DNA from: an uncultured Anaeroplasmatales bacterium
GTDB taxonomy: Bacteria > Bacillota_I > Bacilli_A > Acholeplasmatales > JAEDCM01
Reading direction: 5' to 3'
Length of the DNA stretch: 64,000 nt
Assembly (NCBI GenBank): GCA_964634685.1
Contig: CAZWLD010000009.1
Coordinates: 292 to 64,291 of the forward strand
Below, piece by piece: positions 1 to 14,288 of the stretch. The translations under genes and the position numbers were made by a program. Each line of letters opens with the position of its first letter. Positions within the stretch are counted from its first letter, which is position 1. The notes below the pieces were generated by a model. It was not told the DNA's origin. It saw only the letters and a program-made list of their open reading frames with translations, and ran no database searches.

Positions 1-88
1 TTATGCAAAATATATGGATTTATAAAAATCTAATGACATATGCAAAATATTAATCTCTTTTTACTCTTTTTTATAAAAAAAGCCTTAC

Positions 89-457
89 TCACAAATTAAT
101 AAATGAGTGTGCGGCTTTGGTTTCATCAAACGAACTTCTAGTTGTAATAGCTATGTATGAATCAGTAGAATCATATATATACACTTTATAATCATGTACA
201 GAAGTTCCATTATTTCCAATAGACCCTTTATTTATACCCGATGTGTTTTTATACCAAATAGTACTAGAAAATGAAGATACATTTCTAGGAGCATTAACAA
301 AAGTATGTTTTCCAGATCCCCAACCAGTTGTTGGAAATGTATATGAAAAACTAATCATAGTATTGTTTACATTTGAATTTTCTGCAATAACATTCCGTGA
401 TTTAAAAAGAGTAAGACAAATAATCAAAATAAAACATAAGCAAGAAATTTTTTTCAT
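89..457 (-). CDS. Small secreted protein of unknown function
   Basis: 122-aa ORF. The N-terminus MKKISCLCFILIICLTLFKSRNVIAE looks like a Sec signal peptide. GAGGGG RBS lies about 6 nt upstream of the ATG. No domain recognised. Confidence 0.5.
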   Translation of the reverse strand: MKKISCLCFILIICLTLFKSRNVIAENSNVNNTMISFSYTFPTTGWGSGKHTFVNAPRNVSSFSSTIWYKNTSGINKGSIGNNGTSVHDYKVYIYDSTDSYIAITTRSSFDETKAAHSFINL

Positions 458-474
458 TATGACCCCTCATCTAT

Positions 475-503
475 ATTTTATCATATTTAAAGAATTAAGT
501 CAA
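475..503 (-). promoter_or_regulatory. Sigma-70-type promoter for ORF 89..457
   Basis: Minus strand reads TTGACT (498..503), a 17-nt spacer, then TAAAAT (475..480) with an extended TGn (TGATAAAAT). It sits just upstream of the GAGGGG RBS. Confidence 0.6.
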
Positions 504-789
504 CAAAAGCCCCAAAATAAGCATTTTTTTACGAATTTATTAGTGCTTTTTGTTTAATTAAGTCTATAAAAAAGCAATTATTCAATAAAATTTCTTTGCA
601 TAAAAATTATACAAAATAACCCCCAAATATGAACATTATTCGAAAAAAAACAAGGCAAATATAAAATAAGTTCTCGATATGATAACGTTATTATAAATTT
701 TTTTTGGTTTTTTCGTTTTAAAAAAATTAGTTTTGATTTATAATATAGATAAAGAAAAAACGATTCTAAAATTAATAAGGAGTATAAAA

Positions 790-2472
790 ATGATTAAATC
801 GAACACTTTAAAAGCATCTGAAATTGCAATTTTTGCTCTTGGTGGTTTAGGTGAGGTCGGAAAAAACACTTATGTTATCGAATACCAAAATCAAATTTTT
901 ATTATTGATGCTGGTATGCTTTTTCCTGATGAGCATTTGCTAGGAGTAGATTATGTTATTCCAGATTATCAATATCTAATTGACAATCAAGAAAAAATTG
1001 TTGGTCTTTTCATAACGCATGGTCATGAGGATCACATCGGGGGAATTCCTTTTCTTCTCAAAAAGGTGAAAATTCCAAAAATTTACGCAGCCGGCGTCAC
1101 TGTTGATCTAATTGAAAACAAGCTTCAGGAATATGATGGTCTAACCCCAACTATCGTCGAATACAAAAGCAACTATAGCTTCAAATTTAAAGGAGTTGAG
1201 GTAACGTTCATTAGAATGAACCATTCAATTCCCGACAGCTTTGCCATTGTTTTTAAAACATCCCTTGGCTATATTATTCATACAGGTGATTTTAAAATTG
1301 ATTTTACGCCAATTGGTCCCGCCGCTGAATATGAGAAGCTAGCTAAGCTTGGAAGCGAAGGTGTTTTATGTCTTCTTGCGGATAGTACCAATGCGATGCT
1401 TGATGGCTTTACAATTAGTGAATCGAAGGTTAGTTCTTCAATCAAGGAGGTTTTCAGCAAAATTGAAAATCGAATTTTAGTTGCAACCTTTGCCTCAAAT
1501 ATCTATCGAATCCAACAAATCGTCGAAGCATCTGTTGCGAATAATCGTAAAATTGCTGTCTTTGGTCGTTCAATGGATAAAGCCATTGAGCTAGGACAAC
1601 AAATCGGTTATATCAAAGCCCCAAAAGGAACATTTATTGATGCGCAGGCTATCAATAACTATCCCGCCAATCAAATAACCATTTTATGTACTGGTTCCCA
1701 GGGCGAGCCCCTAGCCGCTTTATCAAGAGTTGCTTTTGGAACGCATCGTCAAATCAAGCTTATCCCCGGCGATACGGTCATCTTCTCTTCTTCACCAATT
1801 CCTGGAAACTCCGGTGGCGTTAATAGAACCATTAATATGCTCTTCAAAAAGGGCGCAGATGTTATTATCAATAGTCCTTTAACCGATACCCATACTAGTG
1901 GTCATGGTGCAGCAATGGAGCTAAAGCTTCTTCAAAGTCTTGTTAAGCCAAAATATTTTATGCCAATTCATGGCGAACATCGAATGCTAAAAACGCATGC
2001 CGATTTAGCTGTATCCGTTGGCGTAAAAAGAGAGAATACCTTTGTTTTAGATAATGGTGATGTTTTAGTAATCGGTAAGGATAAAGCTCGCATTGCGGGA
2101 AAGGTTCAAGCTGGAGATGTCTATGTTGATGGTAGTGGCATCGGAGATATTGGAAATGTTGTCATCAAGGAACGCAAGCTTTTAAGTGATGATGGTTTAT
2201 TATCCTTAATAATTACAATCAATGCCAAAAAACTAGAATTAGCTATTCCGCCAACAATCGTTTCTCGTGGATTCATCTATATGAAATCAAACGAAGATTT
2301 CACAAATAATTTAATTAAGGCTAGCTCAAATCTAATCAATTCCGAATTAAAAAAGATGAAGGTATTAAATACTGTGTACTTAAAAAATCTCATTGCGGAG
2401 CTATTATCTAAATTAATATATAACTATACAGAAAGAAAGCCAATGATTATTCCAATCATTATGACAGTATAA
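790..2472 (+). CDS. rnj: Ribonuclease J (beta-CASP metallo-beta-lactamase RNase)
   Basis: HGHEDHIGG metal motif, GDFKID, and beta-CASP plus C-terminal domain layout. Start moved from track 733 to ATG 790 (MIKSNTLKASEIAIFALGGLGE), which has AAGGAG 8 nt upstream. Confidence 0.9.
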   Translation: MIKSNTLKASEIAIFALGGLGEVGKNTYVIEYQNQIFIIDAGMLFPDEHLLGVDYVIPDYQYLIDNQEKIVGLFITHGHEDHIGGIPFLLKKVKIPKIYAAGVTVDLIENKLQEYDGLTPTIVEYKSNYSFKFKGVEVTFIRMNHSIPDSFAIVFKTSLGYIIHTGDFKIDFTPIGPAAEYEKLAKLGSEGVLCLLADSTNAMLDGFTISESKVSSSIKEVFSKIENRILVATFASNIYRIQQIVEASVANNRKIAVFGRSMDKAIELGQQIGYIKAPKGTFIDAQAINNYPANQITILCTGSQGEPLAALSRVAFGTHRQIKLIPGDTVIFSSSPIPGNSGGVNRTINMLFKKGADVIINSPLTDTHTSGHGAAMELKLLQSLVKPKYFMPIHGEHRMLKTHADLAVSVGVKRENTFVLDNGDVLVIGKDKARIAGKVQAGDVYVDGSGIGDIGNVVIKERKLLSDDGLLSLIITINAKKLELAIPPTIVSRGFIYMKSNEDFTNNLIKASSNLINSELKKMKVLNTVYLKNLIAELLSKLIYNYTERKPMIIPIIMTV

Positions 2473-2477
2473 AAAAA

Positions 2478-2507
2478 GCGGATTTATTTATTTAATCCGC
2501 TTTTTTT
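2478..2507. terminator. Bidirectional Rho-independent terminator between convergent rnj and the TIR gene
   Basis: Stem GCGGATT (2478..2484) pairs with AATCCGC (2494..2500). It is flanked by an A7 run upstream and a T7 run downstream. Confidence 0.8.
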
Positions 2508-2532
2508 ATAGAGTAATATATTAAAATAAAGA

Positions 2533-4884
2533 TTAGTACTTATCATCATAAGGAGTATTCTCAACCCCTTCGTCTTGTAGCTTAGTTACCATACGGTCCA
2601 ATCTCGATTTCCACATTTTTTTAAACCATTTTTTCTTTCCGAATATTTTTACAATTGTTGGACTTATTGCATAATATAGCTTTATAAACATTCTTCCATG
2701 CCATGTCTTGTCCAATTTAAAATCGCGAAAACGCCTAAGTGTCCAAACCTCAGGGCAATCATAAGAGCCATAAACACAAGTTGCAATATAGCAACCTGCT
2801 TTCCTATCTGGTTGAGTAGCTTCATATGTTAAGCCATTATAATTATAAACAAATGGATTAACTTCATACTCAACACTACTAGTTGATATTTTATTAACAT
2901 ATGCCCAATCTTTAAATTGTTTTTGGATTTTGTCTCTTTCCCTTTTTTCGTATTCAGAAAATTCATAATAAAAATGTAGTAAAGTATAGGTAGAATCATT
3001 GATTTTATACAAAAGATCGTACCATAAAGTATATGTAAATTTCAAAGTTGAACGGCCAAGGCTAATATCAAGATGGTCATTGATGCAAATAATGTCCTTA
3101 GTATAAATTGTTCTAAAATTTAAACCTTCAATATCAAAAATCACTTTATCTTCATATAAGGTAATAACCGTCTTACGATTTAATATATACCCTCCTGAAA
3201 CAGTGATTTTAGTCAATTCTAAAAATGAAGATTCAGAAATATCATTTCTAGATAACTTAGCCCAGCTTTCTAAAAGAGGTATCGCTACTTTATATTCATT
3301 TTCGGTTACAATTTTTATCTGCATTTTAACCACATTGAAGACTTGTTCACTTATCTCAAAGATTTCCTTTTTGTTAGAAAGTGATTCACCATATAAATCA
3401 ACAAATTGAACTAGGTTTGAAGACATTTCGCAATAAGAAGTGAATTTCGATTCTTTTATATTATAAGCTTCAAATGACACTCGTTTAAAATAATCTCCAA
3501 CAAAATTAAATAAAATGATAGTGTTTTTTTCTAGTCTGTTACAAAATGCATCATATTGTTCTTTTATTGAATCATTTTTCTTTGACATTTCTCTAATAAT
3601 AGGTAATCCTAATTCAGTTACTGGATTTATTGCCTTTTTAACATCCGTTTCTGATAACCCGGCATCAGACAATTTATCAAATTGTAATCTAGACTCGATG
3701 GCATTAATAATGCAATCAGCGAATAGTTTTTGTTCATTTTCGGAGGTTACATTTCCACATATATCAAAGTGACTTCTTTGATAATCACTACTCATTATTA
3801 AAAATAGCCTTCCATAGAAATTGTTGGAATCCTCTTCAAGAATACCATCTCCAAACTTTTTTAAATTAGGGTGTTTTTCACCATAAATAACTATATTATG
3901 AGATTTTAAATACTCTAAACCTTTTTTTGTTAATGATGATATCTTATTAATAATTTGTGTTTCTTCTTCATTCTTTTTATTCTCATTAGGCTTTTTAATG
4001 ATTTTTTTAATTCCTCTTACAACATCATTAATAAACCCAATTTTGCTCATATCCTGTGCTTGTAAATGCGAGAATTCCTCTGGCAATTCGTATGCATCCA
4101 TATCCTTATAGCAAGGTATAAGCATCTTACTATGATCATTTTTCATCATCTTAAGGAATCGAGACCATTCATTTTTTACCCATACAGCATTAAAATATTC
4201 AGGCTTTGTTCCTATAGAAAGCATGACCTTAGCTGAATTTAGCGCTGCAAAAATAATTGGCTCATATGCACTCCCAAGTTTATCCTCAAGAGTAATAGCT
4301 GCATAAAAAACCTTAAATCCTTCATTTGTAAGATTATGGTAAATTTCATTTGCAATCACACTATCTTTTGTTCTATTTCCGCTTGAGTCAGTTTCCTTGT
4401 AACAAATAAATACATCATAAGGCTCTTCGTTTGCAGAAATTGCAAGAATTCCTTTCTGAATTTCATCAATTTGCATTGCTTCCTTTTCATAGATTGTACG
4501 TTGTACAACATCGGCATATTGAAGAGCCTTTTTGTAATAATCATCCGCAACAATTGATTCGTATGATGTTCTATGACATGTAGGTATTCTTTTGTATGTT
4601 TTTGGATCCTCTACATACTCAATTCCAAATTTACAAAGAATAACACCCCAATATGCTTCAGACTCTCTTTCATCGTTTTGTATTATTTTTTCATAAATAG
4701 CTTCTGCTTTGTCAAATTCATTTTTTTGACGTAGTAAATTAGCTCGATTAAAAAGCCCTTGAATATTTTCATCTGTAGTACTTGGTAATGTTTGTTGGGT
4801 ACCACAGTATTCACATTCAACAACCTTTTCTCCTTCTGAAACTGAAAGCTCACCGCCACACATTTTACATTTATAAATAGCCAT
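2533..4884 (-). CDS. Zinc-ribbon / TPR-like / TIR domain protein with Cys-motif C-terminal module (TIR-A)
   Basis: 783 aa. aa1-30 form a CxxC..CxxC ribbon (CKMCGG..CEYCGT). aa45-130 are helical and TPR-like (AYWGVILCKFGIEYVEDP..PTCHR). aa155-295 form a TIR fold (YDVFICYKETD ... AVWVKNEWSRFL; Glu239 codon at 4168..4170). The C-terminal 87 aa read GCYIATCVYGSYDCPEVWTLRRFRD... The start lies 15 nt after the upstream gene and has a GGAAGAGGG RBS. Confidence 0.75.
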   Translation of the reverse strand: MAIYKCKMCGGELSVSEGEKVVECEYCGTQQTLPSTTDENIQGLFNRANLLRQKNEFDKAEAIYEKIIQNDERESEAYWGVILCKFGIEYVEDPKTYKRIPTCHRTSYESIVADDYYKKALQYADVVQRTIYEKEAMQIDEIQKGILAISANEEPYDVFICYKETDSSGNRTKDSVIANEIYHNLTNEGFKVFYAAITLEDKLGSAYEPIIFAALNSAKVMLSIGTKPEYFNAVWVKNEWSRFLKMMKNDHSKMLIPCYKDMDAYELPEEFSHLQAQDMSKIGFINDVVRGIKKIIKKPNENKKNEEETQIINKISSLTKKGLEYLKSHNIVIYGEKHPNLKKFGDGILEEDSNNFYGRLFLIMSSDYQRSHFDICGNVTSENEQKLFADCIINAIESRLQFDKLSDAGLSETDVKKAINPVTELGLPIIREMSKKNDSIKEQYDAFCNRLEKNTIILFNFVGDYFKRVSFEAYNIKESKFTSYCEMSSNLVQFVDLYGESLSNKKEIFEISEQVFNVVKMQIKIVTENEYKVAIPLLESWAKLSRNDISESSFLELTKITVSGGYILNRKTVITLYEDKVIFDIEGLNFRTIYTKDIICINDHLDISLGRSTLKFTYTLWYDLLYKINDSTYTLLHFYYEFSEYEKRERDKIQKQFKDWAYVNKISTSSVEYEVNPFVYNYNGLTYEATQPDRKAGCYIATCVYGSYDCPEVWTLRRFRDFKLDKTWHGRMFIKLYYAISPTIVKIFGKKKWFKKMWKSRLDRMVTKLQDEGVENTPYDDKY

Positions 4885-4899
4885 ATTTTTCCCTCTTCC

Positions 4900-5742
4900 T
4901 TAATTAATTTTGTTATTTAAATACTTACTATATTTTTCTCGTAAGCTCCAATTTAATTTTTCTTTATATTTACTTTTAATCAATTTATATTTCATTCGAA
5001 TATCTTCTTGTGAAATAGGATTATCTTCACTACAATTAGGTGACAACACTACTTTTGGATCATTTTTTTCACAATCAATTGCTAAATCAATATAGCATTC
5101 ATCATCTAATAATTCTAATTGCTCCTGGCTCAAATTAGCTTTATCAATTTCTATAACTAATCGGCATTCATTTTCATAAGCCCATCCATATAGTTTTGCA
5201 TAATAATCAAGTTTCCCATTTTGTATATCAAAAGGGAAATCATTAATAGAAGCATTTTTTAATCCATATATGGATTTCTTTAGTATTAAATTCTTATTAT
5301 CATCACCAACATATATAACATCAATCATTTCAATTCGGAATTTTCCCTTAGGAATATTTAAAACAAAAGTATCATCGCGTGAAATATTAATTTCATTTGT
5401 TTTGGTAATCAAGTCTTTTATTATAGACTTAGTAAATGTAAGCATAAAGCCCTCTTCTGAAGGATCAGAATATAACATCCACATAGCGATATTTTCACTT
5501 TTTGAATAAGTAAAAGATTTAACAAATCGAATTTTACCATCATTACACAGATTATCACGATCAATTATATCGTTCCAACTAGTTCCTCTTGTTAATCTAA
5601 TACTCGATTTTTTAAGCGTTTCAACAATTGATTTTCTATCCCCATAAAATGAATACTGGTCGTGATCTATCCCTTTTTTCTTCAATTCATTATACAAATC
5701 ATCCTTCGACTTAATACCCTTAAAAAAATCTTCTCTTGGCAT
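4900..5742 (-). CDS. DUF2971-like protein
   Basis: 280 aa. The motifs NIAMWMLYS and YGWAYENECRLVI match my memory of the DUF2971 signature (MW..Y and E.E.R). The ORF is 12 nt downstream of the 4TM gene. Confidence 0.55.
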   Translation of the reverse strand: MPREDFFKGIKSKDDLYNELKKKGIDHDQYSFYGDRKSIVETLKKSSIRLTRGTSWNDIIDRDNLCNDGKIRFVKSFTYSKSENIAMWMLYSDPSEEGFMLTFTKSIIKDLITKTNEINISRDDTFVLNIPKGKFRIEMIDVIYVGDDNKNLILKKSIYGLKNASINDFPFDIQNGKLDYYAKLYGWAYENECRLVIEIDKANLSQEQLELLDDECYIDLAIDCEKNDPKVVLSPNCSEDNPISQEDIRMKYKLIKSKYKEKLNWSLREKYSKYLNNKIN

Positions 5743-5754
5743 ATACTATTACCT

Positions 5755-6474
5755 CTATTTTTGCTTAGAAGCTTTTGCTTTTTGGTTTCTTTCCTTCAAT
5801 AAAATTATTAACTCATCAATATCACTAAAAATTGAATCAATAATACCAGTTGATATATTTCTTTTTAGTAATTCACAATTTTTATAAATCTCTTCCTCTA
5901 TTTCTCCCAATGAATCATTTGATACCGGATCACTGTATTTTACTTCTTCAACTAGTAATCCTAGCTTTATACGAATAGATTCTTCTGTCACCTTATTTGC
6001 TAATGTTTCTAAATCAACTCTCAAATCCGAAATAAATTTGGTAGTATTTGGTAAAGAATTTTCAATTTTAATTATTTCCTGCTTGTAAGAATCCGTCATA
6101 ATCAAACCAATTGAAGTTAATCCAATCAAAATTGACTCAATGACAATAATAATCCAATAATCTACTAAAACAAAGGAATTAAGAGTAAATAGGGCAATGC
6201 AAAGAACCATTTGAATTAACATGTATAAATATCCTAATCGGATAATTGGCCAACCATATATTTTGCTTTTGTATGTGTTTGTCTCATTCAAACCATAATG
6301 TGCAATAAATGGTTGAGAAATGATACTCAACAAGCCACAAATCCAAAGAATCCAAAAGGAAGCCTCTGATTTATGAGCAAAAGGAATAGCAAGAGCTAAA
6401 ATATTATAAACAACTCCAATAATAATTACGATAGCAATATATTTCTTAAAATTTTTATTCATTTTCTTATCCAT
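5755..6474 (-). CDS. Four-TM membrane protein with cytoplasmic helical C-terminal domain
   Basis: 239 aa with four hydrophobic helices in aa12-130, followed by a charged helical tail (..IRIKLGLLVEEVKYSDPVSNDSLGEIEEEIYKN..). The start lies 3 nt after the SPFH gene stop; the alternative ATG at 6462 has a better RBS spacing. Confidence 0.6.
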   Translation of the reverse strand: MDKKMNKNFKKYIAIVIIIGVVYNILALAIPFAHKSEASFWILWICGLLSIISQPFIAHYGLNETNTYKSKIYGWPIIRLGYLYMLIQMVLCIALFTLNSFVLVDYWIIIVIESILIGLTSIGLIMTDSYKQEIIKIENSLPNTTKFISDLRVDLETLANKVTEESIRIKLGLLVEEVKYSDPVSNDSLGEIEEEIYKNCELLKRNISTGIIDSIFSDIDELIILLKERNQKAKASKQK

Positions 6475-6477
6475 CCT

Positions 6478-8208
6478 TTACTCAGGCTTCTTGGTACCAC
6501 AATTGGGGCAAAAATTTGTTAATATATTATTCTGTCCACAAGAGCAATTCCAACCTTTTGACTCTTCAGGCTTCTTTGAACCGCAATTTGGGCAAAAACG
6601 TGTCATTATGTTATTTTGCCCACAAGAGCAATTCCAACCTTTTGACTCTTCCGGTTTCTTCGAACCACAATTTGGACAAAAATTAGTCACTATGTTACTT
6701 TGACCACATTGGCAATTCCAGCCAAAAGAAGATGAGCCAATTTGCGATGCTGAATTAATAATAGGATTAATTGTATCTTTTGCCATTCCCATAACACTGC
6801 CAACAGCACCCATAGTAACACCTAACCCAACAACATCTCCAAGAATGCTAGAGGCAAAACCTGCAGCACCTCCTTGAGGCATATTCTCCATCGCAGAAAG
6901 TGATACTTGTCGTCTCGTTTCATCTTGATATGTATATCCCTTCATTTGCATTTCCTGGGCCTCTGCTTGTGCTTTTAATCGATAGGCTTCAGCCTTTGCT
7001 TGAGCAGCAATTATTTCCTCCTGAGCTCCTGTTTGTGCTTCAACTACTCTTCTTTGCTGCTCAGCCAAGGCTACATTTTTCTTTATTTGCTCATTACGAA
7101 CTAATAAATACTGTTCAGCATACTGTTCCTTCATTTTTCTAAAATTTGGATCATCATCTGGTGTAACAACATGTAAAATATAAAATTCTGGTATATGCAT
7201 ACCATAATCCTCAAGAGTTTTATTGATTTCTATCTTCATAGAATTAGACAATGTTTCTAAATGCTCATCTACTTCTAAAATATTGATACTATTTTCCTTA
7301 ATATGTTTAGCCAAAATGCTCTTTACTTTTGAAATAACTAAAGCCTTAAATTTGCCAGATACAACTTTGATATCATAAGGATTATTAATTATATCTGTAT
7401 TTCTCAATTCAGAAGTAGTTCCAACTAGCTTTAATAGTAGTTTTCGAGAATTTACTACCCTAATATTGAACTCTCCATAGGCACCAAGTTCAATAGATAA
7501 CCCTGATATTGGATCAAACATTCTAACTTTAGTATCTGTTCCCCATTTAATTCCCGTTTGAGTGACCATATTAATGAAGTAAACTTCTGAGTGAAATGCA
7601 ACTTCACTATCAAATGGCAATTTATATAAGTTTTGCAATAAAGGCAATTTTTCTGTTGCTAATGTATATCTTCCTGCCCCAAAACAATCAAGCGCTTGCC
7701 CATCACGGAAAAATATTGCTTCTTGGGATTCATGGACGATTAATTGAGAGCCAAGATTAAAATCTTCAATAGGATGCTTCCATACTAATACATTATTGGG
7801 TCCCTCATATTTTATAACGCTTGCAAATCCTTTTTCCTTTATAGATTCTCTTGCAATAACCTCTTGGACATCCAAATGCTCTTTACAGAGGGGACAAACA
7901 TAGCTCTTTGCAGATTTATCTACTTGTAGTTTACATGAACAAGAAGGACAATTTATGTATACATAGTTCATCCTACTTTCCGATGTAACAATTTTATTTT
8001 TACATACAGGGCAATTTGCAGAATCTCCTTTAGCTTGATCGTACATTACCGAATTACCACAATGTGGACAATCTTTTATTGCGAAGCGATCTTTCCTAAC
8101 ATCAATGACTTTTCCACATTTACATTCTAAATATTTATTTGAAAAAAAACCAATAGATGCCTCCTGATAAGATCCGCATTTAGGACATTCAATAATAAAT
8201 TTAGCCAT
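6478..8208 (-). CDS. SPFH/band-7 domain protein with three N-terminal and three C-terminal zinc ribbons (SPFH-A, YdjI/COG4260-like)
   Basis: 576 aa. There are three N-terminal CxxC..CxxC pairs (CPKCGS..CKCGK, CPHCGN..CPVCKN, CPSCSC..CPLCKE). The SPFH core spans about aa125-370 (7099..7836). An A/Q/E-rich coiled coil follows, then the Gly-rich hydrophobic segment GGAAGFASSILGDVVGLGVTMGAVGSVMGMA, then 3 x GWNCxCGQxNIxTxFCPNCGxKKPE. Confidence 0.75.
   Translation of the reverse strand: MAKFIIECPKCGSYQEASIGFFSNKYLECKCGKVIDVRKDRFAIKDCPHCGNSVMYDQAKGDSANCPVCKNKIVTSESRMNYVYINCPSCSCKLQVDKSAKSYVCPLCKEHLDVQEVIARESIKEKGFASVIKYEGPNNVLVWKHPIEDFNLGSQLIVHESQEAIFFRDGQALDCFGAGRYTLATEKLPLLQNLYKLPFDSEVAFHSEVYFINMVTQTGIKWGTDTKVRMFDPISGLSIELGAYGEFNIRVVNSRKLLLKLVGTTSELRNTDIINNPYDIKVVSGKFKALVISKVKSILAKHIKENSINILEVDEHLETLSNSMKIEINKTLEDYGMHIPEFYILHVVTPDDDPNFRKMKEQYAEQYLLVRNEQIKKNVALAEQQRRVVEAQTGAQEEIIAAQAKAEAYRLKAQAEAQEMQMKGYTYQDETRRQVSLSAMENMPQGGAAGFASSILGDVVGLGVTMGAVGSVMGMAKDTINPIINSASQIGSSSFGWNCQCGQSNIVTNFCPNCGSKKPEESKGWNCSCGQNNIMTRFCPNCGSKKPEESKGWNCSCGQNNILTNFCPNCGTKKPE
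6482..6723 (-). repeat. Three tandem 84-bp in-frame repeats encoding zinc fingers
   Basis: The units 6482..6565, 6566..6649 and 6650..6723 are nearly identical at DNA level. Each encodes GWNC(S/Q)CGQ(N/S)NI.T.FCPNCG(S/T)KKPE(ESK). Confidence 0.9.
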
Positions 8209-8282
8209 ATATGATACTTCCTTTCTTTATTAATAATTGCAGTATTTTACAAAATATAAGATAATATTATATAGTTTATTTC

Positions 8283-8309
8283 ATTATACCCCCCCCCGAC
8301 CTTTGTCAA
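8283..8309 (-). promoter_or_regulatory. Promoter of the SPFH-4TM-DUF2971-TIR operon with a homopolymeric G9 spacer
   Basis: Minus strand reads TTGACA (8304..8309) AAGGTC GGGGGGGGG TATAAT (8283..8288). Both hexamers are perfect consensus but the spacer is only 15 nt. The AGGAAG RBS and the ATG at 8208 lie about 70 nt downstream. Confidence 0.7.
8289..8297. repeat. C9/G9 homopolymeric tract
   Basis: Nine consecutive C on the plus strand, inside the promoter spacer. This is the longest G/C run I could find by eye in this AT-rich window; the others are 5 nt or shorter. Confidence 0.95.
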
Positions 8310-8454
8310 TATTTTTGGAAAATATTATCAAAAATTGTCATCTGCGCAAACATTGCAAACAAAAATCAAAAAAACAGGTTTTCTCTTTATGGCGCGAAAA
8401 TTACAAATCTAAACAACATATATTTTCAATCAAAAATCAATATTTTTTCTGTAT

Positions 8455-8485
8455 AAAAAAAATAGGCTTCACAAAATGTGAAGAC
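8455..8485 (-). terminator. Rho-independent terminator downstream of the ATPase gene
   Basis: Minus strand reads GTCTTCACA TTT TGTGAAGCC followed by TATTTTTTTT. The core stem is 7 bp. It separates ORF 8602..9612 from the downstream operon promoter. Confidence 0.65.
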
Positions 8486-8601
8486 TATTGTCTCAAAGAA
8501 AAATATCTTACTTATACTATTAGAATGTAATCATCATAAAATACTCTTTTTTCAAAAAAATTTATTCTTCTATTAATAGCTTTTGAAAGGCCACAAATTC
8601 T

Positions 8602-9612
8602 TTAAATCGAGGCAAAATAAAGGCTATTTTTCCCCGCATTTTTTATATTAATCAAACCTTGATTAAAAAGTCTTTTTTTATAAACCTGAAATTTTGAATT
8701 ATTCAATCCTGTCTCAATTAAAATATCTTTCACGTCAGCTGAATTAACCATCGCAAACATAATTTTTTGTTCAACGGATGATAATGATTCCCATATTTTT
8801 AAATAGACATTATTCTCTAAGGCTTGATCATAATCGCTTAGTATCTTTTTTGTCAATTTCTTTTCATTATTTTTAAATAAAATATTTCCAAGAAGTTGAT
8901 AGGCATAGGCATAGCCATTAGTGGCCTTGGCAAGGATTAAGGCATCTTTTTCAGAAATATTGAATATATCCTGATAGGATGAACATATCGATCTCATATT
9001 CAATGCCTCAAGCATTACTTTCTTTGTTCTCAATAAAAATGTTAATCCATTTGTATTTTCCAACTTAGAAATATTCTCATATAAGCCTGTCATAATAAAA
9101 AACACATCATATCCTTCACGTAAAAAGCTTTGAAATGAATAAACAAAGCTCTTAACAATATTGCTAGATGCAATGTCATCGACGGTGATTAAAACTCTCT
9201 TTTTCTTTTTTTTCAAATATTTGAACATTACATCCAAAAGACTATTAACGTTACTTAATGGATTATCACCACTTATTTTCAAAGATAATCCCGAAAAAGA
9301 AAAATTAAATTCTGCCTTCAGAAAAAGTTTTTTTAATCTTCCTTGATCATATATTTTCGCCGCAAGCTGTTCATGCATATCTGAAAAAGGATTTAAATCA
9401 ACAGTTATCCATTCTTCTTCATTAGAAATTTGTTTTTTTATTTTTGAAAGCATAACTGTTTTTCCAGTTTCACAAGGACCGATAATTGCTATTGCGCGTG
9501 CCTCAGGAATATCACTATTAAGTGTTGATATAATTTCGTCAAATTCGTTGCGTTCAATAAAAAGATGTGGTTCCTCACCAAAACCAATATTAAATGGATT
9601 TACCTTTGTCAT
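8602..9612 (-). CDS. AAA/P-loop ATPase (archaeal-ATPase/ORC-like) with probable C-terminal winged helix
   Basis: 336 aa. Walker A is GPCETGKT and the Walker B-like motif is VLITVDDI. The C-terminal part (SSVEQKIMFAMV..) looks wHTH-like. AAGGAG RBS lies 10 nt upstream. Confidence 0.55.
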   Translation of the reverse strand: MTKVNPFNIGFGEEPHLFIERNEFDEIISTLNSDIPEARAIAIIGPCETGKTVMLSKIKKQISNEEEWITVDLNPFSDMHEQLAAKIYDQGRLKKLFLKAEFNFSFSGLSLKISGDNPLSNVNSLLDVMFKYLKKKKKRVLITVDDIASSNIVKSFVYSFQSFLREGYDVFFIMTGLYENISKLENTNGLTFLLRTKKVMLEALNMRSICSSYQDIFNISEKDALILAKATNGYAYAYQLLGNILFKNNEKKLTKKILSDYDQALENNVYLKIWESLSSVEQKIMFAMVNSADVKDILIETGLNNSKFQVYKKRLFNQGLINIKNAGKNSLYFASI

Positions 9613-9745
9613 ATGAATTCAACTCCTTAAAATCTTACACTTTAATAGAACACACTTCCATTTGTTATTTCAATATTTTTTTGTTATGTGTTGTCATTTG
9701 TTGTTATTTGCGATTTCATTTGTTATTTAATAAAACATTACTTTT

Positions 9746-10849
9746 CTAATCGCAGTATATCGTTAAACCCTGATAAAATAATTGTTTATGAACATCTTTA
9801 GAAGAAACATCATACTTTACCTTTTCACCATCTGAATTTATATAGTACCATCCGGTTTTATTCTCAAACTCCAAAACAGGATTACAATTTCCATTTGCAG
9901 AAATCCCAAAAGGTTCAATTACTTTAATATTTTTAGGAATGATAAAAGTTTCTTCTTTATAAGCTACAGTCAAGGCACTATCCCCAATTATTTCTATTTC
10001 TTCTAAAATAACGGTATTTCGACATCCTGCAATTATCTTGTTAGTTTTTGTTTCTATGATGGCATTACAGTTTTCCCTTGAATCATAAACATCATTATCT
10101 TCATCCACCTGAATCTTTTCTAATGAGCCACATAAGTGAAATATACCAGCATCAATTTTTTTTACTGATTTAGGAATAAATATTTCAGTTAATGGCGTAC
10201 TGTCAAAGCAGCCATATCCAATAGATTCTAGATTATTAGAAAGCTTAACTGAAATTAAATTATAACACCGACCAAATGAGCCTTCGCCAAGAGATTTAAC
10301 ACTATCTGGTATTATTACATAATCTAATTTCGACCAGAAAAAAGCATAATCCTCAATTGTATGAACACTATTAGGTATATCAATTTCTGTTATTTCTGAT
10401 AAATAGAAAGCACCATATCCAATTATTTCAATATCATCAGGTATTATTGTCCCAACACATCCAGCAACCAAGGTATTAGTATCAGTTTCAACAATGGCAT
10501 TACAATTATTTCTTGAATCATATTTTTTATTATCCTTCGATACTTCCACTTTTCTTAGATTTTTATTTCTACCAAAAATACCACCATAAACACTTTCAAT
10601 ATTTTCTGAAATATAAATACTTTCCACTGTAGAAGAAATAGCATATTCGCCAATTGCCGTTACAGGCAAATCATTATACGTACTAGGAATAACTATTTTC
10701 TTTAGATTATTATCATTCAACCCAGTAAAAGTATAGCTTTCTCCATCTTCATTTAGTTCAAATTTATATTCAGCATATTCTTCCTTTTTACTACAAGAGG
10801 ATAACAATATCACAAAACAAAAAATAATAGCCACAAAAATTTTTTTCAT
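9746..10849 (-). CDS. BspA-type leucine-rich-repeat lipoprotein
   Basis: Signal peptide plus lipobox (ILLSSC). Repeated IP.SV..I...AF..C..L..I units are typical of BspA/LRR_5 repeats. It is a paralogue of the adjacent gene. Confidence 0.7.
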   Translation of the reverse strand: MKKIFVAIIFCFVILLSSCSKKEEYAEYKFELNEDGESYTFTGLNDNNLKKIVIPSTYNDLPVTAIGEYAISSTVESIYISENIESVYGGIFGRNKNLRKVEVSKDNKKYDSRNNCNAIVETDTNTLVAGCVGTIIPDDIEIIGYGAFYLSEITEIDIPNSVHTIEDYAFFWSKLDYVIIPDSVKSLGEGSFGRCYNLISVKLSNNLESIGYGCFDSTPLTEIFIPKSVKKIDAGIFHLCGSLEKIQVDEDNDVYDSRENCNAIIETKTNKIIAGCRNTVILEEIEIIGDSALTVAYKEETFIIPKNIKVIEPFGISANGNCNPVLEFENKTGWYYINSDGEKVKYDVSSKDVHKQLFYQGLTIYCD

Positions 10850-10915
10850 ACTTGCTCACTCCTATTTCTTTTAAAACATAAAAATTAAATTGCATTAAGA
10901 TTTCTTTCTTGTCAA

Positions 10916-12025
10916 TTAGTTTTCACAATATAGAGTAAAATCTTGGTGCCAAAAAGTCTTATATACTTCTTCTTCACTGACATCAAAATCCACCTTTTCA
11001 TTATTTGAATTAAAATAATACCAACCGATATTATTTTCGAATTTCACAACTGGATTAGCTGAACCACCACTTATAATGCCATATGGCTCAATTACTTTAA
11101 TATTGCTTGGAATAATAAAGGTTTCCGTGATTTGTGCGATAGAAAACGCATAGGTTCCAATAGTATCAATAAAATCAAAAATAATGCTATTGCGACATCC
11201 GGCAATGATCTTATTAGCTTTTGTTTCTATAATTGCATTACAATTATCCCGTGAATCATAAACCTCATTTTCTTCATCTACTTCAATTTTATTTAGCTTT
11301 GAACAAAAGCCAAAAGCGCCTCCACCTATCTTATTCACAGTCTTTGGAATATATATTTCCGATATAGCTGTGTCATAAAAACATTTTTCACCGATAGATT
11401 GAAGGTTGTTAGTAAGCTTAACCATAGTTAAATCACGACACTCCGCAAATGCTTTATTACCAATAGCTAAAACATTATCCGGAATAACTAAATAATCTAA
11501 ATTAGAATGATAAAAAGCATAATCTTCGATTGTATGAACGCTATTAGGAATATCTATTTCTGTTATGTTGATAAACTGAAAAGCACCTAATCCAATTTTT
11601 TCAATATCATTAGGGATTTTTGTTGTCTTACAGCCTGCAATCAAGGTATTAGTCTCGGTAAGAATAATAGCATTACAATCATCTCTTGAATCAAATTTAT
11701 TATTATCTTTAGCTACTTCAATTTTTTTTAAATCATCACACCCAGCAAAAATATTGCTTAAAAAAGTGTTAATATTATCAGAAATAAAGACGCTTTCTAC
11801 AGAATTATAGAAAAATGCATATTCACCGATTTTGGTAACTGGCTTATTTTTGTAAGTATTAGGAATAACTACATCATTAGTTACATTAGAATCAAAGCCT
11901 TCGAAGGAATAACTCATTCCGTCCTCATTTAGTTCAAATTTGAAACCAGGATATTCTTCCTTTTTACTACAAGCGGATAACATTATCATAAAGCATAAAA
12001 TACTAGCCAAAATAATTTTTTTCAT
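10916..12025 (-). CDS. BspA-type leucine-rich-repeat lipoprotein
   Basis: Signal peptide plus lipobox (IMLSAC) and the same repeat architecture as its neighbour. The start overlaps the permease stop (ATGA at 12022..12025). Confidence 0.7.
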   Translation of the reverse strand: MKKIILASILCFMIMLSACSKKEEYPGFKFELNEDGMSYSFEGFDSNVTNDVVIPNTYKNKPVTKIGEYAFFYNSVESVFISDNINTFLSNIFAGCDDLKKIEVAKDNNKFDSRDDCNAIILTETNTLIAGCKTTKIPNDIEKIGLGAFQFINITEIDIPNSVHTIEDYAFYHSNLDYLVIPDNVLAIGNKAFAECRDLTMVKLTNNLQSIGEKCFYDTAISEIYIPKTVNKIGGGAFGFCSKLNKIEVDEENEVYDSRDNCNAIIETKANKIIAGCRNSIIFDFIDTIGTYAFSIAQITETFIIPSNIKVIEPYGIISGGSANPVVKFENNIGWYYFNSNNEKVDFDVSEEEVYKTFWHQDFTLYCEN

Positions 12026-13185
12026 GCTTTCTCCCCTCTATTTCTTTTCAAAACATAAAAATTAATCAAGCCAATAACTGCCAAATATACAAGGAAAACT
12101 AAGATAATGATGATTGAATACTCAGATGTGCTTAGCTTCAATGACATTTGTTCCTCAACGAGGATATGTTTATTTAATAAATCAATCATCACGATTGATA
12201 AAATTGTTCCTAAAACAAAGGAAAAGAGATAAATATAGAGATTTTCTAGTTGAAATGTCCATTGACATTTTTTACTTGAATAGCCTAAAGACCTTAGCAT
12301 TTTAAAATACTTATATTGATCATTAAACTTAATCAAAATTGAATTAAAAAGATTAACTACACACAACAAAACAATCGCCAAAATAATAATAAAAATGATC
12401 GTATTCACAATTTCAAATTGAGCGATAATAAAATGGTTTTTTTGATATGATTCGTAGCTATTAACATGATTCTCTATGTTATGAGTATCAAAATATTCAA
12501 AATATGGCTCAAGCAACTCATATTTATTTAGATAAATATATGAAGTCATCGCATTAGATGAATCAATTCGGATAAACTCATTGTTTAAATCTTTGGAAAA
12601 AATTATGTATGAAGAATAATTACTATCTCCTAAAACAAAATTATTAAAACAATCATCTTTTACAATGCAAGCAATTTTACAATCAATAAAAGCATATTCA
12701 CTATCATCTAAGCTTAATCTTTTTCCTAGTAAATCCGTCATAGAGCATTCTTGAGTCACAGCCATTAGCTTAGCTAAACGATAATTTATAATTATTTCAT
12801 CCTTTTCTTTAGGTATTTCTCCATACATCAATCCTTCTTTTAAGCCTAAATATTCTGGTAACTTATTAAAATCATATATTAGCATCTTTGTACTTCTTGT
12901 GAAGCCTAAGTCCACATTATCTAAATAAAAGTGCTTTGAGTTATGATAATTAGAACTTCCATAACAAGTTATTAATTCAACATTTGAGGTTAATATTGGT
13001 ATTTCCTCGGTTGTTTTAGCCTTGATGTAATATTCACCTTGGTTAATACTTCCAATATCTTCATAGAGATTTTTATATCCTGTTTTAATAAAGAAAAAGG
13101 ATAAGGTCGCAAAAACAATAGCCAAAAAGATAAACATTATTTTAAAAGATCTTTTTTTATAACGGATAATATTCTTTAAAACCAT
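12022..13185 (-). CDS. ABC transporter permease, FtsX/MacB type
   Basis: 387 aa: one N-terminal TM helix, a large extracytoplasmic domain, then a C-terminal cluster of three TM helices. A TAATG overlap joins it to the upstream permease. Confidence 0.65.
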   Translation of the reverse strand: MVLKNIIRYKKRSFKIMFIFLAIVFATLSFFFIKTGYKNLYEDIGSINQGEYYIKAKTTEEIPILTSNVELITCYGSSNYHNSKHFYLDNVDLGFTRSTKMLIYDFNKLPEYLGLKEGLMYGEIPKEKDEIIINYRLAKLMAVTQECSMTDLLGKRLSLDDSEYAFIDCKIACIVKDDCFNNFVLGDSNYSSYIIFSKDLNNEFIRIDSSNAMTSYIYLNKYELLEPYFEYFDTHNIENHVNSYESYQKNHFIIAQFEIVNTIIFIIILAIVLLCVVNLFNSILIKFNDQYKYFKMLRSLGYSSKKCQWTFQLENLYIYLFSFVLGTILSIVMIDLLNKHILVEEQMSLKLSTSEYSIIIILVFLVYLAVIGLINFYVLKRNRGEKA

Positions 13186-14288
13186 TACTCATCACCTCTT
13201 AATTCTAAAACCAAATTCTTATGTGTTTTTTTCATAAGAGTATATAAAATCATCGCTAATAAAATCACAACAGTAATTAAGATAACCCACCAAAATGACA
13301 AATAAATCGGATCGATTTTGACTATTCTATTGAGTTTACTTCGAACCCATATATTTATAAGTAATGATATTAGATAGCCAATTATACTTGAAGAAATAAA
13401 TACAGCTGAGAATATCGCTATAAATAATTTTTTATCAATGCTTATTCCAAGGGAATGATTAATTAAATAAAATTTTTTGCGTTGTAAAAAATACAAATTA
13501 TTAAAATTAAACACACTAAAAGTCAAAAAGATTAAAAGAATGATTAAAACAGCCTTTAAGATTCGGTTAGCTAAAGATATGAAGAAAAAAATACCAAAAA
13601 TAACACCACCATCATCTGCAGCTAATTTTGAGGAAACATAAAAAGGAATTAAATCATCGCCTACATCAAACAAATCATAGCTTGAAGGTAAAATGAATTC
13701 AGTGTAATATTCATCTTTAGTATTCTCAAAACATTCATAAGGAACAACCACTGTACGTCCAATATCTTCTCGGAAAGTCCCCACCAAAGTTAGTTTATAA
13801 TCATTACCATATACAGATAGAATAATTTCTTCTCCTATAGAAAGACCATATTTATTCACCAGACCTTCCGTCATAAATATCGATTTTTCTTTGTCAAATC
13901 CTGAATACTTTTCTAATATATTTTTACTTGCTTTAAAGCCAAACGAGCTATAGCAATTATAATCAGTATATTCAAAATTAGAAAAACAAATAATAGTGTC
14001 TACATTTTTTCCATTAATTAAGATCGGATTATTTTCGATAATTATATCCACAATTAGCGGATATTTTGATGCAAGCTTGTCCACAAGCTTTTTATCAATA
14101 TTTTGGATTTGATATAGCATCGGGCTATTATATTTATCGATGTATTTATCGAAAATATGATAATAATTTTGAATAAAAGCGGAAATTGAAAAAATAAGGG
14201 CAAGGACAATTGATAAAGTAATAAACAATTTAATTAAGAAATACCTGCAAAGCTTAAATTCTTTAATTAATATTTTGAAGATAGTCAT
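13185..14288 (-). CDS. ABC transporter permease, FtsX/MacB type
   Basis: 367 aa with the same 1+3 TM topology. The start overlaps the ATPase gene by 26 nt. Confidence 0.65.
   Translation of the reverse strand: MTIFKILIKEFKLCRYFLIKLFITLSIVLALIFSISAFIQNYYHIFDKYIDKYNSPMLYQIQNIDKKLVDKLASKYPLIVDIIIENNPILINGKNVDTIICFSNFEYTDYNCYSSFGFKASKNILEKYSGFDKEKSIFMTEGLVNKYGLSIGEEIILSVYGNDYKLTLVGTFREDIGRTVVVPYECFENTKDEYYTEFILPSSYDLFDVGDDLIPFYVSSKLAADDGGVIFGIFFFISLANRILKAVLIILLIFLTFSVFNFNNLYFLQRKKFYLINHSLGISIDKKLFIAIFSAVFISSSIIGYLISLLINIWVRSKLNRIVKIDPIYLSFWWVILITVVILLAMILYTLMKKTHKNLVLELRGDE

Follow-up and report, generated by a model that had tools for sequence, protein, structure and literature searches.

Promoter switches that depend on homopolymeric repeats are textbook material for the surface antigens of a few pathogens; to our knowledge, reports of them are scarce for commensal gut Firmicutes and lacking for operons encoding TIR domains. 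In Mycoplasma hyorhinis, a low-GC organism related to the Erysipelotrichales, poly-A tracts occupy the promoter spacers of the vlp multigene family of surface lipoproteins, and in Haemophilus influenzae a dinucleotide repeat sets the −35/−10 spacing of the divergent hif fimbrial promoter pair. Defence functions can also be turned ON and OFF by simple repeats, as in the phasevarions of Type III restriction-modification mod genes and the G tract of pglX in the Pgl/BREX system of Streptomyces. The original 1995 work on porA of Neisseria meningitidis is said to have equated tracts of G9, G10 and G11 with spacers of 15, 16 and 17 nt. A poly-G tract of about 9–11 residues lies between the −35 and −10 hexamers of the porA promoter, where transcription is lost below 17-nt spacing, and the Treponema pallidum tp0126 promoter has a poly-G tract in the same place, with an optimum at 17 nt of total spacing; T. 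pallidum tracts of 7–11 G coexist within isolates (PMC7864442). For the (TA)n spacer of hifA/hifB, a reference is listed in PMC5084427.

In the stretch of 64,000 nt analysed here (the window), a G9 homopolymer takes up most of the spacer of a minus-strand promoter that precedes an operon encoding an SPFH protein, a membrane protein, a DUF2971 protein and a TIR protein. We put at roughly 75% the probability that this tract acts as a spacer-length switch of the porA/tp0126 type, which would make the SPFH/TIR operon promoter phase-variable. The homopolymeric G spacer and its geometry are essentially identical to those of porA, and the poly-G spacer with a 17-nt optimum is shared with tp0126. However, porA encodes a surface antigen of a proteobacterial pathogen, and tp0126 and the tpr genes encode outer-membrane proteins of a spirochaete, several tpr tracts lying outside the spacer, whereas the window holds a cytoplasmic/membrane TIR-SPFH operon of a gut Firmicute known from sequence. 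The vlp promoters resemble it in having a homopolymer in the spacer in a low-GC organism, but theirs is a poly-A tract serving a family of surface lipoproteins. With phasevarions and pglX the locus would share the use of simple repeats to switch a costly defence function stochastically, although those repeats lie mostly inside coding sequences and the module in the window is not a recognised defence system. What is unusual here is the cargo, a TIR-SPFH module, together with the number of different switch types found on one module.

Read on the minus strand (7900-8700), the promoter has the order CCAAAAATA-TTGACA-AAGGTC-GGGGGGGGG-TATAAT-GAAATAAAC, with a total −35/−10 spacer of 15 nt (Table 1). 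The first-pass annotation had described exact consensus hexamers separated by a 15-nt spacer of which 9 nt are a single G run, and re-reading the minus strand confirmed this with exact coordinates. In low-GC Firmicutes, the promoter consensus is TTGACA/TATAAT with a spacer optimum of 17 nt. The 22-nt A/T-rich block next to the −35 hexamer matches the UP-element consensus at 13 of 15 specified positions, and its score falls in the top 0.06% of all 22-mers of this AT-rich window. With a perfect −35, a perfect −10 and the UP-like block together, the promoter looks made for maximal strength, and its spacing alone is wrong. We also weighed a second TATAAT, at about 8270-8265, as a possible −10 but rejected it, as it is without a −35 and not conserved in the closest related locus (L001). 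No Rfam family matched in 8100-8700, which covers the intergenic region and the predicted 5′ UTR.

Table 1. Features of the promoter and operon in the window, and of switches and comparable elements at other loci (positions refer to the window unless a locus is named)
Feature	Position	Strand	Remark
KAP/ATPase_2-like NTPase gene, upstream neighbour	8602-9612		ends in hairpin + U8
Intrinsic terminator of upstream ATPase gene, 7-bp stem + U8	8457..8483	-	terminator scan
Upstream limit of L001 homology	8343		34 nt upstream of −35; beyond, sequences unrelated
A/T-rich UP-element-like block TTGATAATATTTTCCAAAAATA, abuts −35	8310..8331	-	conserved in L001; function predicted
−35 hexamer TTGACA, exact consensus	8304..8309	-	identical in L001, L103, L095
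Spacer, non-repeat part AAGGTC	8298..8303	-	identical in L001, L095; L103 has AAAATGGTC
G9 homopolymer GGGGGGGGG, proposed slippage-prone element	8289..8297	-	G10 in L001, L103
−10 hexamer TATAAT, exact consensus	8283..8288	-	sequence
Predicted 5′ UTR, about 68 nt	8209..8277	-	start predicted from sequence at about 8277-8275
Ribosome-binding site AAGGAAG	8223-8217	-	precedes ATG at 8208
Gene 1: 576-aa SPFH (Band_7_1), N- and C-terminal zinc ribbons	6478..8208	-	Pfam E=5e-37
Gene 2: 239-aa multi-pass membrane protein	5755..6474	-	adjoins SPFH gene in 97/99 loci
Gene 3: 280-aa DUF2971 protein, variable accessory	4900..5742	-	Pfam; 5/99 loci
Gene 4: 783-aa zinc-ribbon/TPR/TIR_2, CFI-box C-terminal domain	2533..4884	-	TIR_2 E=3e-10
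Poly-G upstream of SPFH gene	window, L001, L103, L102
(TA)12 promoter spacer	L004 563-595 = L014 (JAZLLM010000084.1, Bacilli MAG)		TTGATA-(TA)n, 21 nt-TATAAT
(AAGC)7 leader repeat	L003 1310-1483		upstream of SPFH gene
(AAGC)3 leader repeat, second cassette copy	L003 165-290		upstream of WHH/colicin-DNase toxin gene
(CAGA)19 leader repeat	L080 1-200		upstream of SPFH gene
(GACA)15 leader repeat	L084 260-420		upstream of SPFH gene
Ribbon-helix-helix-like gene	L011 1703-1888; L103 2801-3001; L108 2788-2979; L102 150-467		L102: 105 aa as called
Candidate inverton, tyrosine recombinase	L105 2781-2917		promoter faces away from operon
Candidate inverton, tyrosine recombinase	L020 1179-1466		promoter faces operon
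Candidate inverton, repeat related to L020	L023 56-335		contig ends before any recombinase gene; promoter faces operon
Two candidate invertons, same arm sequence, tyrosine recombinase	L058 2456-2616 and 11235-11411		promoter faces away
Candidate inverton, serine recombinase	L069 2704-2863
Candidate inverton, serine recombinase	L050 5830-5966		promoter faces away from operon
Poly-G-spacer promoter, IMG/VR contig	L109 2319-2344		ATA-G11, 14-nt spacer
Poly-G-spacer promoter, IMG/VR contig	L110 2469-2497		AATA-G13, 17-nt spacer
Poly-G-spacer promoter, IMG/VR contig	L111 10237-10265		AATATAAT-G9, 17-nt spacer

The tract had also been singled out as the sole long G/C homopolymer in a window of about 30% GC, and this holds: at a GC content of 31.3%, the next longest G or C runs in the 64 kb are 5 nt long (n=12), with none of 6–8 nt, and no other notable simple repeat was found across the whole window. 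A run of at least nine G arose in 3 of 100 dinucleotide-preserving shuffles. Perfect TTGACA-N13-21-TATAAT pairs occur three times in the window against 0.51 expected, the other two having 17- and 18-nt spacers. That a G9 tract exactly fills the gap between perfect hexamers, with a good ribosome-binding site and an ATG 75 nt from the promoter, is far beyond chance.

Tract length in related strains and MAGs, a comparison proposed by the first-pass annotation, varied as it had predicted, with conserved hexamers at spacings of 15, 16 and 19 nt. The closest homologue of the SPFH protein (P0001, 87% amino-acid identity; L001 and L002) is preceded by TTGACA-AAGGTC-G10-TATAAT, a 16-nt spacer. By blastn, L001 is 81% identical to the window over 4.4 kb (window 8343..3924), and since homology starts shortly upstream of the −35 and the sequences are unrelated beyond that point, the promoter is part of a mobile operon cassette. 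Over a 45-nt block that starts in the UP-like region and ends shortly after the −10, the two loci differ by one mismatch and one G of tract length; for 19% divergence we estimate the chance of at most one mismatch in 45 positions at about 9e-4, assuming uniform divergence. A third lineage (P0009, 73% identity; L103) carries TTGACA-AAAATGGTC-G10-TATACT, where a 3-nt insertion yields a 19-nt spacer, and this promoter precedes a small ribbon-helix-helix-like gene followed by the SPFH gene. Homologous promoters free of the repeat, TTGACA-17-TAAAAT in L003 and TTGACA-17-TATAAT in L011 and L102, are all spaced at 17 nt. Spacers of 15, 16 and 19 nt with the tract versus 17 nt in all three promoters without it form the pattern expected of a spacer-length switch. 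These 17-nt homologues also bear out the earlier proposal that a gain of one or two G would restore optimal spacing, as does the arithmetic (G10, 16 nt; G11, 17 nt). The window contig also occurs unchanged in SRR6824197, and ERR3393565 represents the L001/L002 lineage. Within each pair of assemblies (window/L101, L001/L002 and L103/L104), the overlapping sequence is 100% identical and tract length does not differ, so the length evidence amounts to three lineages rather than five samples, with no variation seen within a lineage, and the predicted fully ON spacing of 17 nt occurs in no tract-bearing assembly.

Two other explanations bear directly on this comparison. Poly-G artefacts are known, for example from two-colour sequencing chemistry, and in the second assembly of the third lineage (L104) the contig ends exactly at the tract, as a sequencing or assembly artefact might have it. 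Yet the tract is internal and short, and three diverged lineages, sequenced in different projects and put together by different assemblers, all have it between the same hexamers, which leaves an artefact with a negligible probability. Alternatively, the promoter could be fixed and deliberately weak, holding a potentially harmful operon at a constant low level, with the G9/G10 differences being neutral indels. Such a design would agree with the sub-optimal spacing in all three lineages and with the constancy of tract length within each, but perfect hexamers and an UP-like block combined with a wrong spacing would be an odd way to build weakness, the repeat-free relatives stand at 17 nt, and the same module has repeatedly gained other switches, invertons included. 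Moreover, runs of 9–10 G are intrinsically hypermutable, so constancy would require selection against the conserved design itself. We regard a fixed weak promoter as unlikely.

If the tract works as the spacer-length switch of a sigma-A/sigma-70 promoter, G9 would give a 15-nt spacer that RNA polymerase uses very poorly, leaving the promoter OFF or near-OFF, and slipped-strand mispairing during replication would add or remove G residues and so interconvert the states: G10 (16 nt) would support low to intermediate transcription, G11 (17 nt) maximal transcription and the full ON state, and G12 (18 nt) an intermediate level. The SPFH/membrane-protein/DUF2971/TIR operon would then be silent in most cells and expressed by a small, constantly renewed subpopulation, a way of hedging bets with a conflict or defence module that is costly and probably consumes NAD. 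How fast the tract slips, how transcription follows its length, where transcripts start, and what the operon costs and does are inferred.

Upstream, the operon is predicted to be insulated by the terminator of the ATPase gene, which should shield it from read-through; this hairpin lies in an 81-nt stretch (8440-8520) with a predicted folding energy of −16 kcal/mol (z = −2.9). When the 393 nt of the intergenic region (8209-8601) were scanned with relaxed criteria, no other site combined a spacing of 16–18 nt with nine or more matches to the 12 hexamer positions, and by this reading the G-tract promoter is the only credible sigma-70-type promoter between the upstream terminator and the SPFH gene. 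A 15-nt spacer would be nearly inactive, and bulk expression might for that reason originate elsewhere, from another promoter or by read-through, with the G-tract motif not functioning as a promoter at all. Against this stand the empty scan, the terminator and the conservation in L001, which shares the promoter block from 34 nt before the −35 onwards although its sequence further upstream is unrelated, and we consider transcription from another source very unlikely. On the far side of the ATPase gene, the window has two paralogous lipoprotein genes in tandem, both with BspA-type leucine-rich repeats (LRR_5; 9746-10849 and 10916-12025), which adjoin FtsX-type permease genes and are identical in L101.

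Similar G-tract promoters were found beyond the SPFH loci. A metagenome pattern scan gave nine matches, eight of which were unrelated promoters without a G run and were rejected. The ninth, on the minus strand of L095 (433-460; JAEEGL010068021.1, 29% GC), reads identically TTGACAAAGGTC-G10-TATAAT and precedes an unrelated gene for a 109-aa small membrane protein, with flanks unrelated to the window; the gene upstream encodes a 425-aa multi-pass membrane protein, which we take to be a CPBP-type protease. The TTGACAAAGGTC-G10-TATAAT module may represent a reusable or mobile promoter cassette. Contigs from IMG/VR with 54–63% GC contain other perfect TTGACA/TATAAT promoters with mostly poly-G spacers, so the switch class is not unique to the window locus. 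Two of them, on L109 and L110, are apparent homologues with tracts of unequal length. Scans of viral contigs for copies of the GGTC-Gn-TATA module or relatives of the SPFH protein returned neither, and the operon is therefore not evidently phage-borne.

A G run near the operon is not always a spacer. In the P0007 lineage (L102 470-560), whose promoter is free of the repeat, the interval between the small ribbon-helix-helix-like gene and the SPFH gene contains a G10 run as part of a strong transcribed hairpin, in which it pairs with a C/U-rich arm; a second hairpin, a terminator, comes next (−42.6 kcal/mol, z = −5.9). The G10 hairpin, together with the GGTC that is kept ahead of the tract in three contexts (window/L001, L095 and L103) and could mark a binding site, would fit a tract that serves as a protein-binding site or unusual DNA structure, its length not being the regulatory variable. 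But a single run of nine G is not enough for an intramolecular quadruplex, the tract in the window lies upstream of the predicted start and would thus be absent from the RNA, and tract length and spacing vary between lineages while the hexamers stay perfect. A role of this kind seems to us scarcely probable. A further G9 run, 3.7 kb upstream of the SPFH gene in L063 (2287-2295), falls inside a gene that by eye seems to encode an RCC1-like repeat protein; G8 is predicted to restore the reading frame of the repeat, and the run would be either a phase switch within the coding sequence or a fault of the assembly.

The operon proposed to be switched by the G tract consists of four genes on the minus strand, separated by gaps of 3, 12 and 15 nt. 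A tblastn search of 99 loci found the membrane-protein gene (about 235 aa) in 97 and the TIR gene in 82, on either side of the pair, and SPFH, membrane protein and TIR form a conserved, unnamed three-gene module to which the window operon belongs. The glutamate of the W-x-x-E motif of the TIR domain (WVKNE) aligns with the conserved glutamate of solved TIR domains, which is consistent with NADase competence. PADLOC matched no system to the operon, Thoeris included, and the NCBIfam model for Thoeris ThcB4 scored 20 bits against a cut-off of 220 bits, giving no system assignment; membership in Thoeris was rejected, as no SIR2 or Macro gene is present in the operon and no curated model matched. 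The full-length TIR protein had no sequence match in the PDB, exact-protein look-ups of the window SPFH and membrane proteins found nothing, that of the ATPase returned only a contig identical to the window, and the literature searched yielded nothing relevant on SPFH-TIR defence systems or on phase-variable control of TIR or SPFH. The best genome match of the SPFH protein is an uncultured Coprobacillus MAG (L012, 81% identity), in which no repeats were found, followed by Bacilli and Clostridia gut MAGs; the host is a low-GC gut Firmicute related to Coprobacillus.

Long simple repeats concentrate at the start of this module. Across 89 non-redundant loci (969 kb), eight of nine such repeats are found in the 700 nt preceding the SPFH start, a zone that makes up 5.9% of the sequence (binomial p = 1.3e-9); the p-value is optimistic because the cases have about four independent origins, are not phylogenetically independent, and set a partly intergenic zone against a mostly coding background, but the direction is clear. 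Besides poly-G, the repeats include a (TA)12 spacer in L004/L014, in a promoter about 60 nt upstream of the ATG of an orthologous SPFH/membrane-protein/DUF2971/TIR operon (76% identity), where loss of two TA units would by arithmetic bring the spacer to 17 nt. The closest analogue of this promoter is hifA/hifB, which differs in being a divergent fimbrial pair rather than a single operon promoter.

At other loci, tetranucleotide repeats lie inside short leader ORFs that have a good ribosome-binding site at their start and an intrinsic terminator behind them. With seven repeats, the leader ORF of L003 passes the terminator and ends just before the SPFH ribosome-binding site, whereas that of the second cassette copy, with three repeats, ends right after the repeat. 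These leaders (L003, L080 and L084) may constitute repeat-controlled translational attenuators, and we know of no description of a switch of this type. Reading of the sequence also revealed a gene for a small ribbon-helix-helix-like protein of 61–66 aa immediately upstream of the SPFH gene at some loci. The product may be a dedicated transcriptional regulator that acts instead of or alongside a stochastic switch; in L011 and L108, the gene is accompanied by an ordinary promoter instead.

An inverted-repeat scan further identified promoter-bearing segments of 67–232 nt, bounded by inverted repeats of 21–34 nt and sitting just in front of the module's first gene, which encodes TIR or SPFH. A recombinase gene lies immediately upstream of the segment in at least five loci (L105, L020, L058, L069 and L050), at which inversion can be proposed from the architecture. 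The L105 inverton is represented in L105-L107, from SRR27608061, SRR27608100 and SRR27608101. These segments with their recombinases resemble invertons such as E. coli fimS; the window differs in that no recombinase was found among the ORFs or Pfam matches of 1-14000, and the arrangement is seen in relatives only. Inverted repeats in L072 and L043 were rejected as self-palindromic and terminator-like, and those in L088, L037, L078 and L029 for want of an adjacent recombinase or a promoter. The inverton surveys that we checked make no mention of TIR or SPFH cargo. That the same module has repeatedly come under unrelated stochastic switches gives strong circumstantial support to the window tract as a switch. 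The phase-variable ON/OFF reading offered by the first-pass annotation is accordingly supported from several sides: the lineage comparison, the lack of a rival promoter, the upstream terminator and the other switches on the module.

A broader reading, to which we give somewhat less than an even chance, is that gut Firmicutes widely carry the TIR-SPFH-membrane protein module as a contingency (bet-hedged) system of immunity or suicide, which has independently come under at least five different stochastic switches: the poly-G spacer, the (TA)n spacer, tyrosine-recombinase invertons, serine-recombinase invertons and the tetranucleotide leader ORF. The G9 promoter of the window would be one instance of this rule. 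If the switch is real, a conserved TIR-SPFH module is costly enough to be stochastically silenced in many lineages, which would be a strong hint of an abortive-infection-like or self-harming function, and inventories of defence genes from metagenomes would overstate what is actually expressed. In that case, the many switch types on one module would also provide a handle for finding contingency loci in uncultured bacteria, and the function of the module could be tested through selected ON variants, for example under phage pressure.

Two further observations concern the encoded proteins. At its C-terminus (6478-6725), the SPFH protein has a tandem array of three zinc-ribbon units, each about 29 aa long (GWNCxCGQxNIxTxFCPNCGSKKPEESK), with a DNA self-similarity of 74–82%, and the lengths of SPFH homologues (554–660 aa) would be consistent with a variable number of such units. 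Between window 2533-8208 and L001 6001-11331, identity is 98% in the TIR domain, 86% in SPFH, 70% in the membrane protein and 62% in DUF2971; across Clostridia, the TIR domain is likewise more conserved (60–84%) than SPFH (about 55%). This mosaic divergence suggests either recombination or an unusually strong constraint on the TIR domain.
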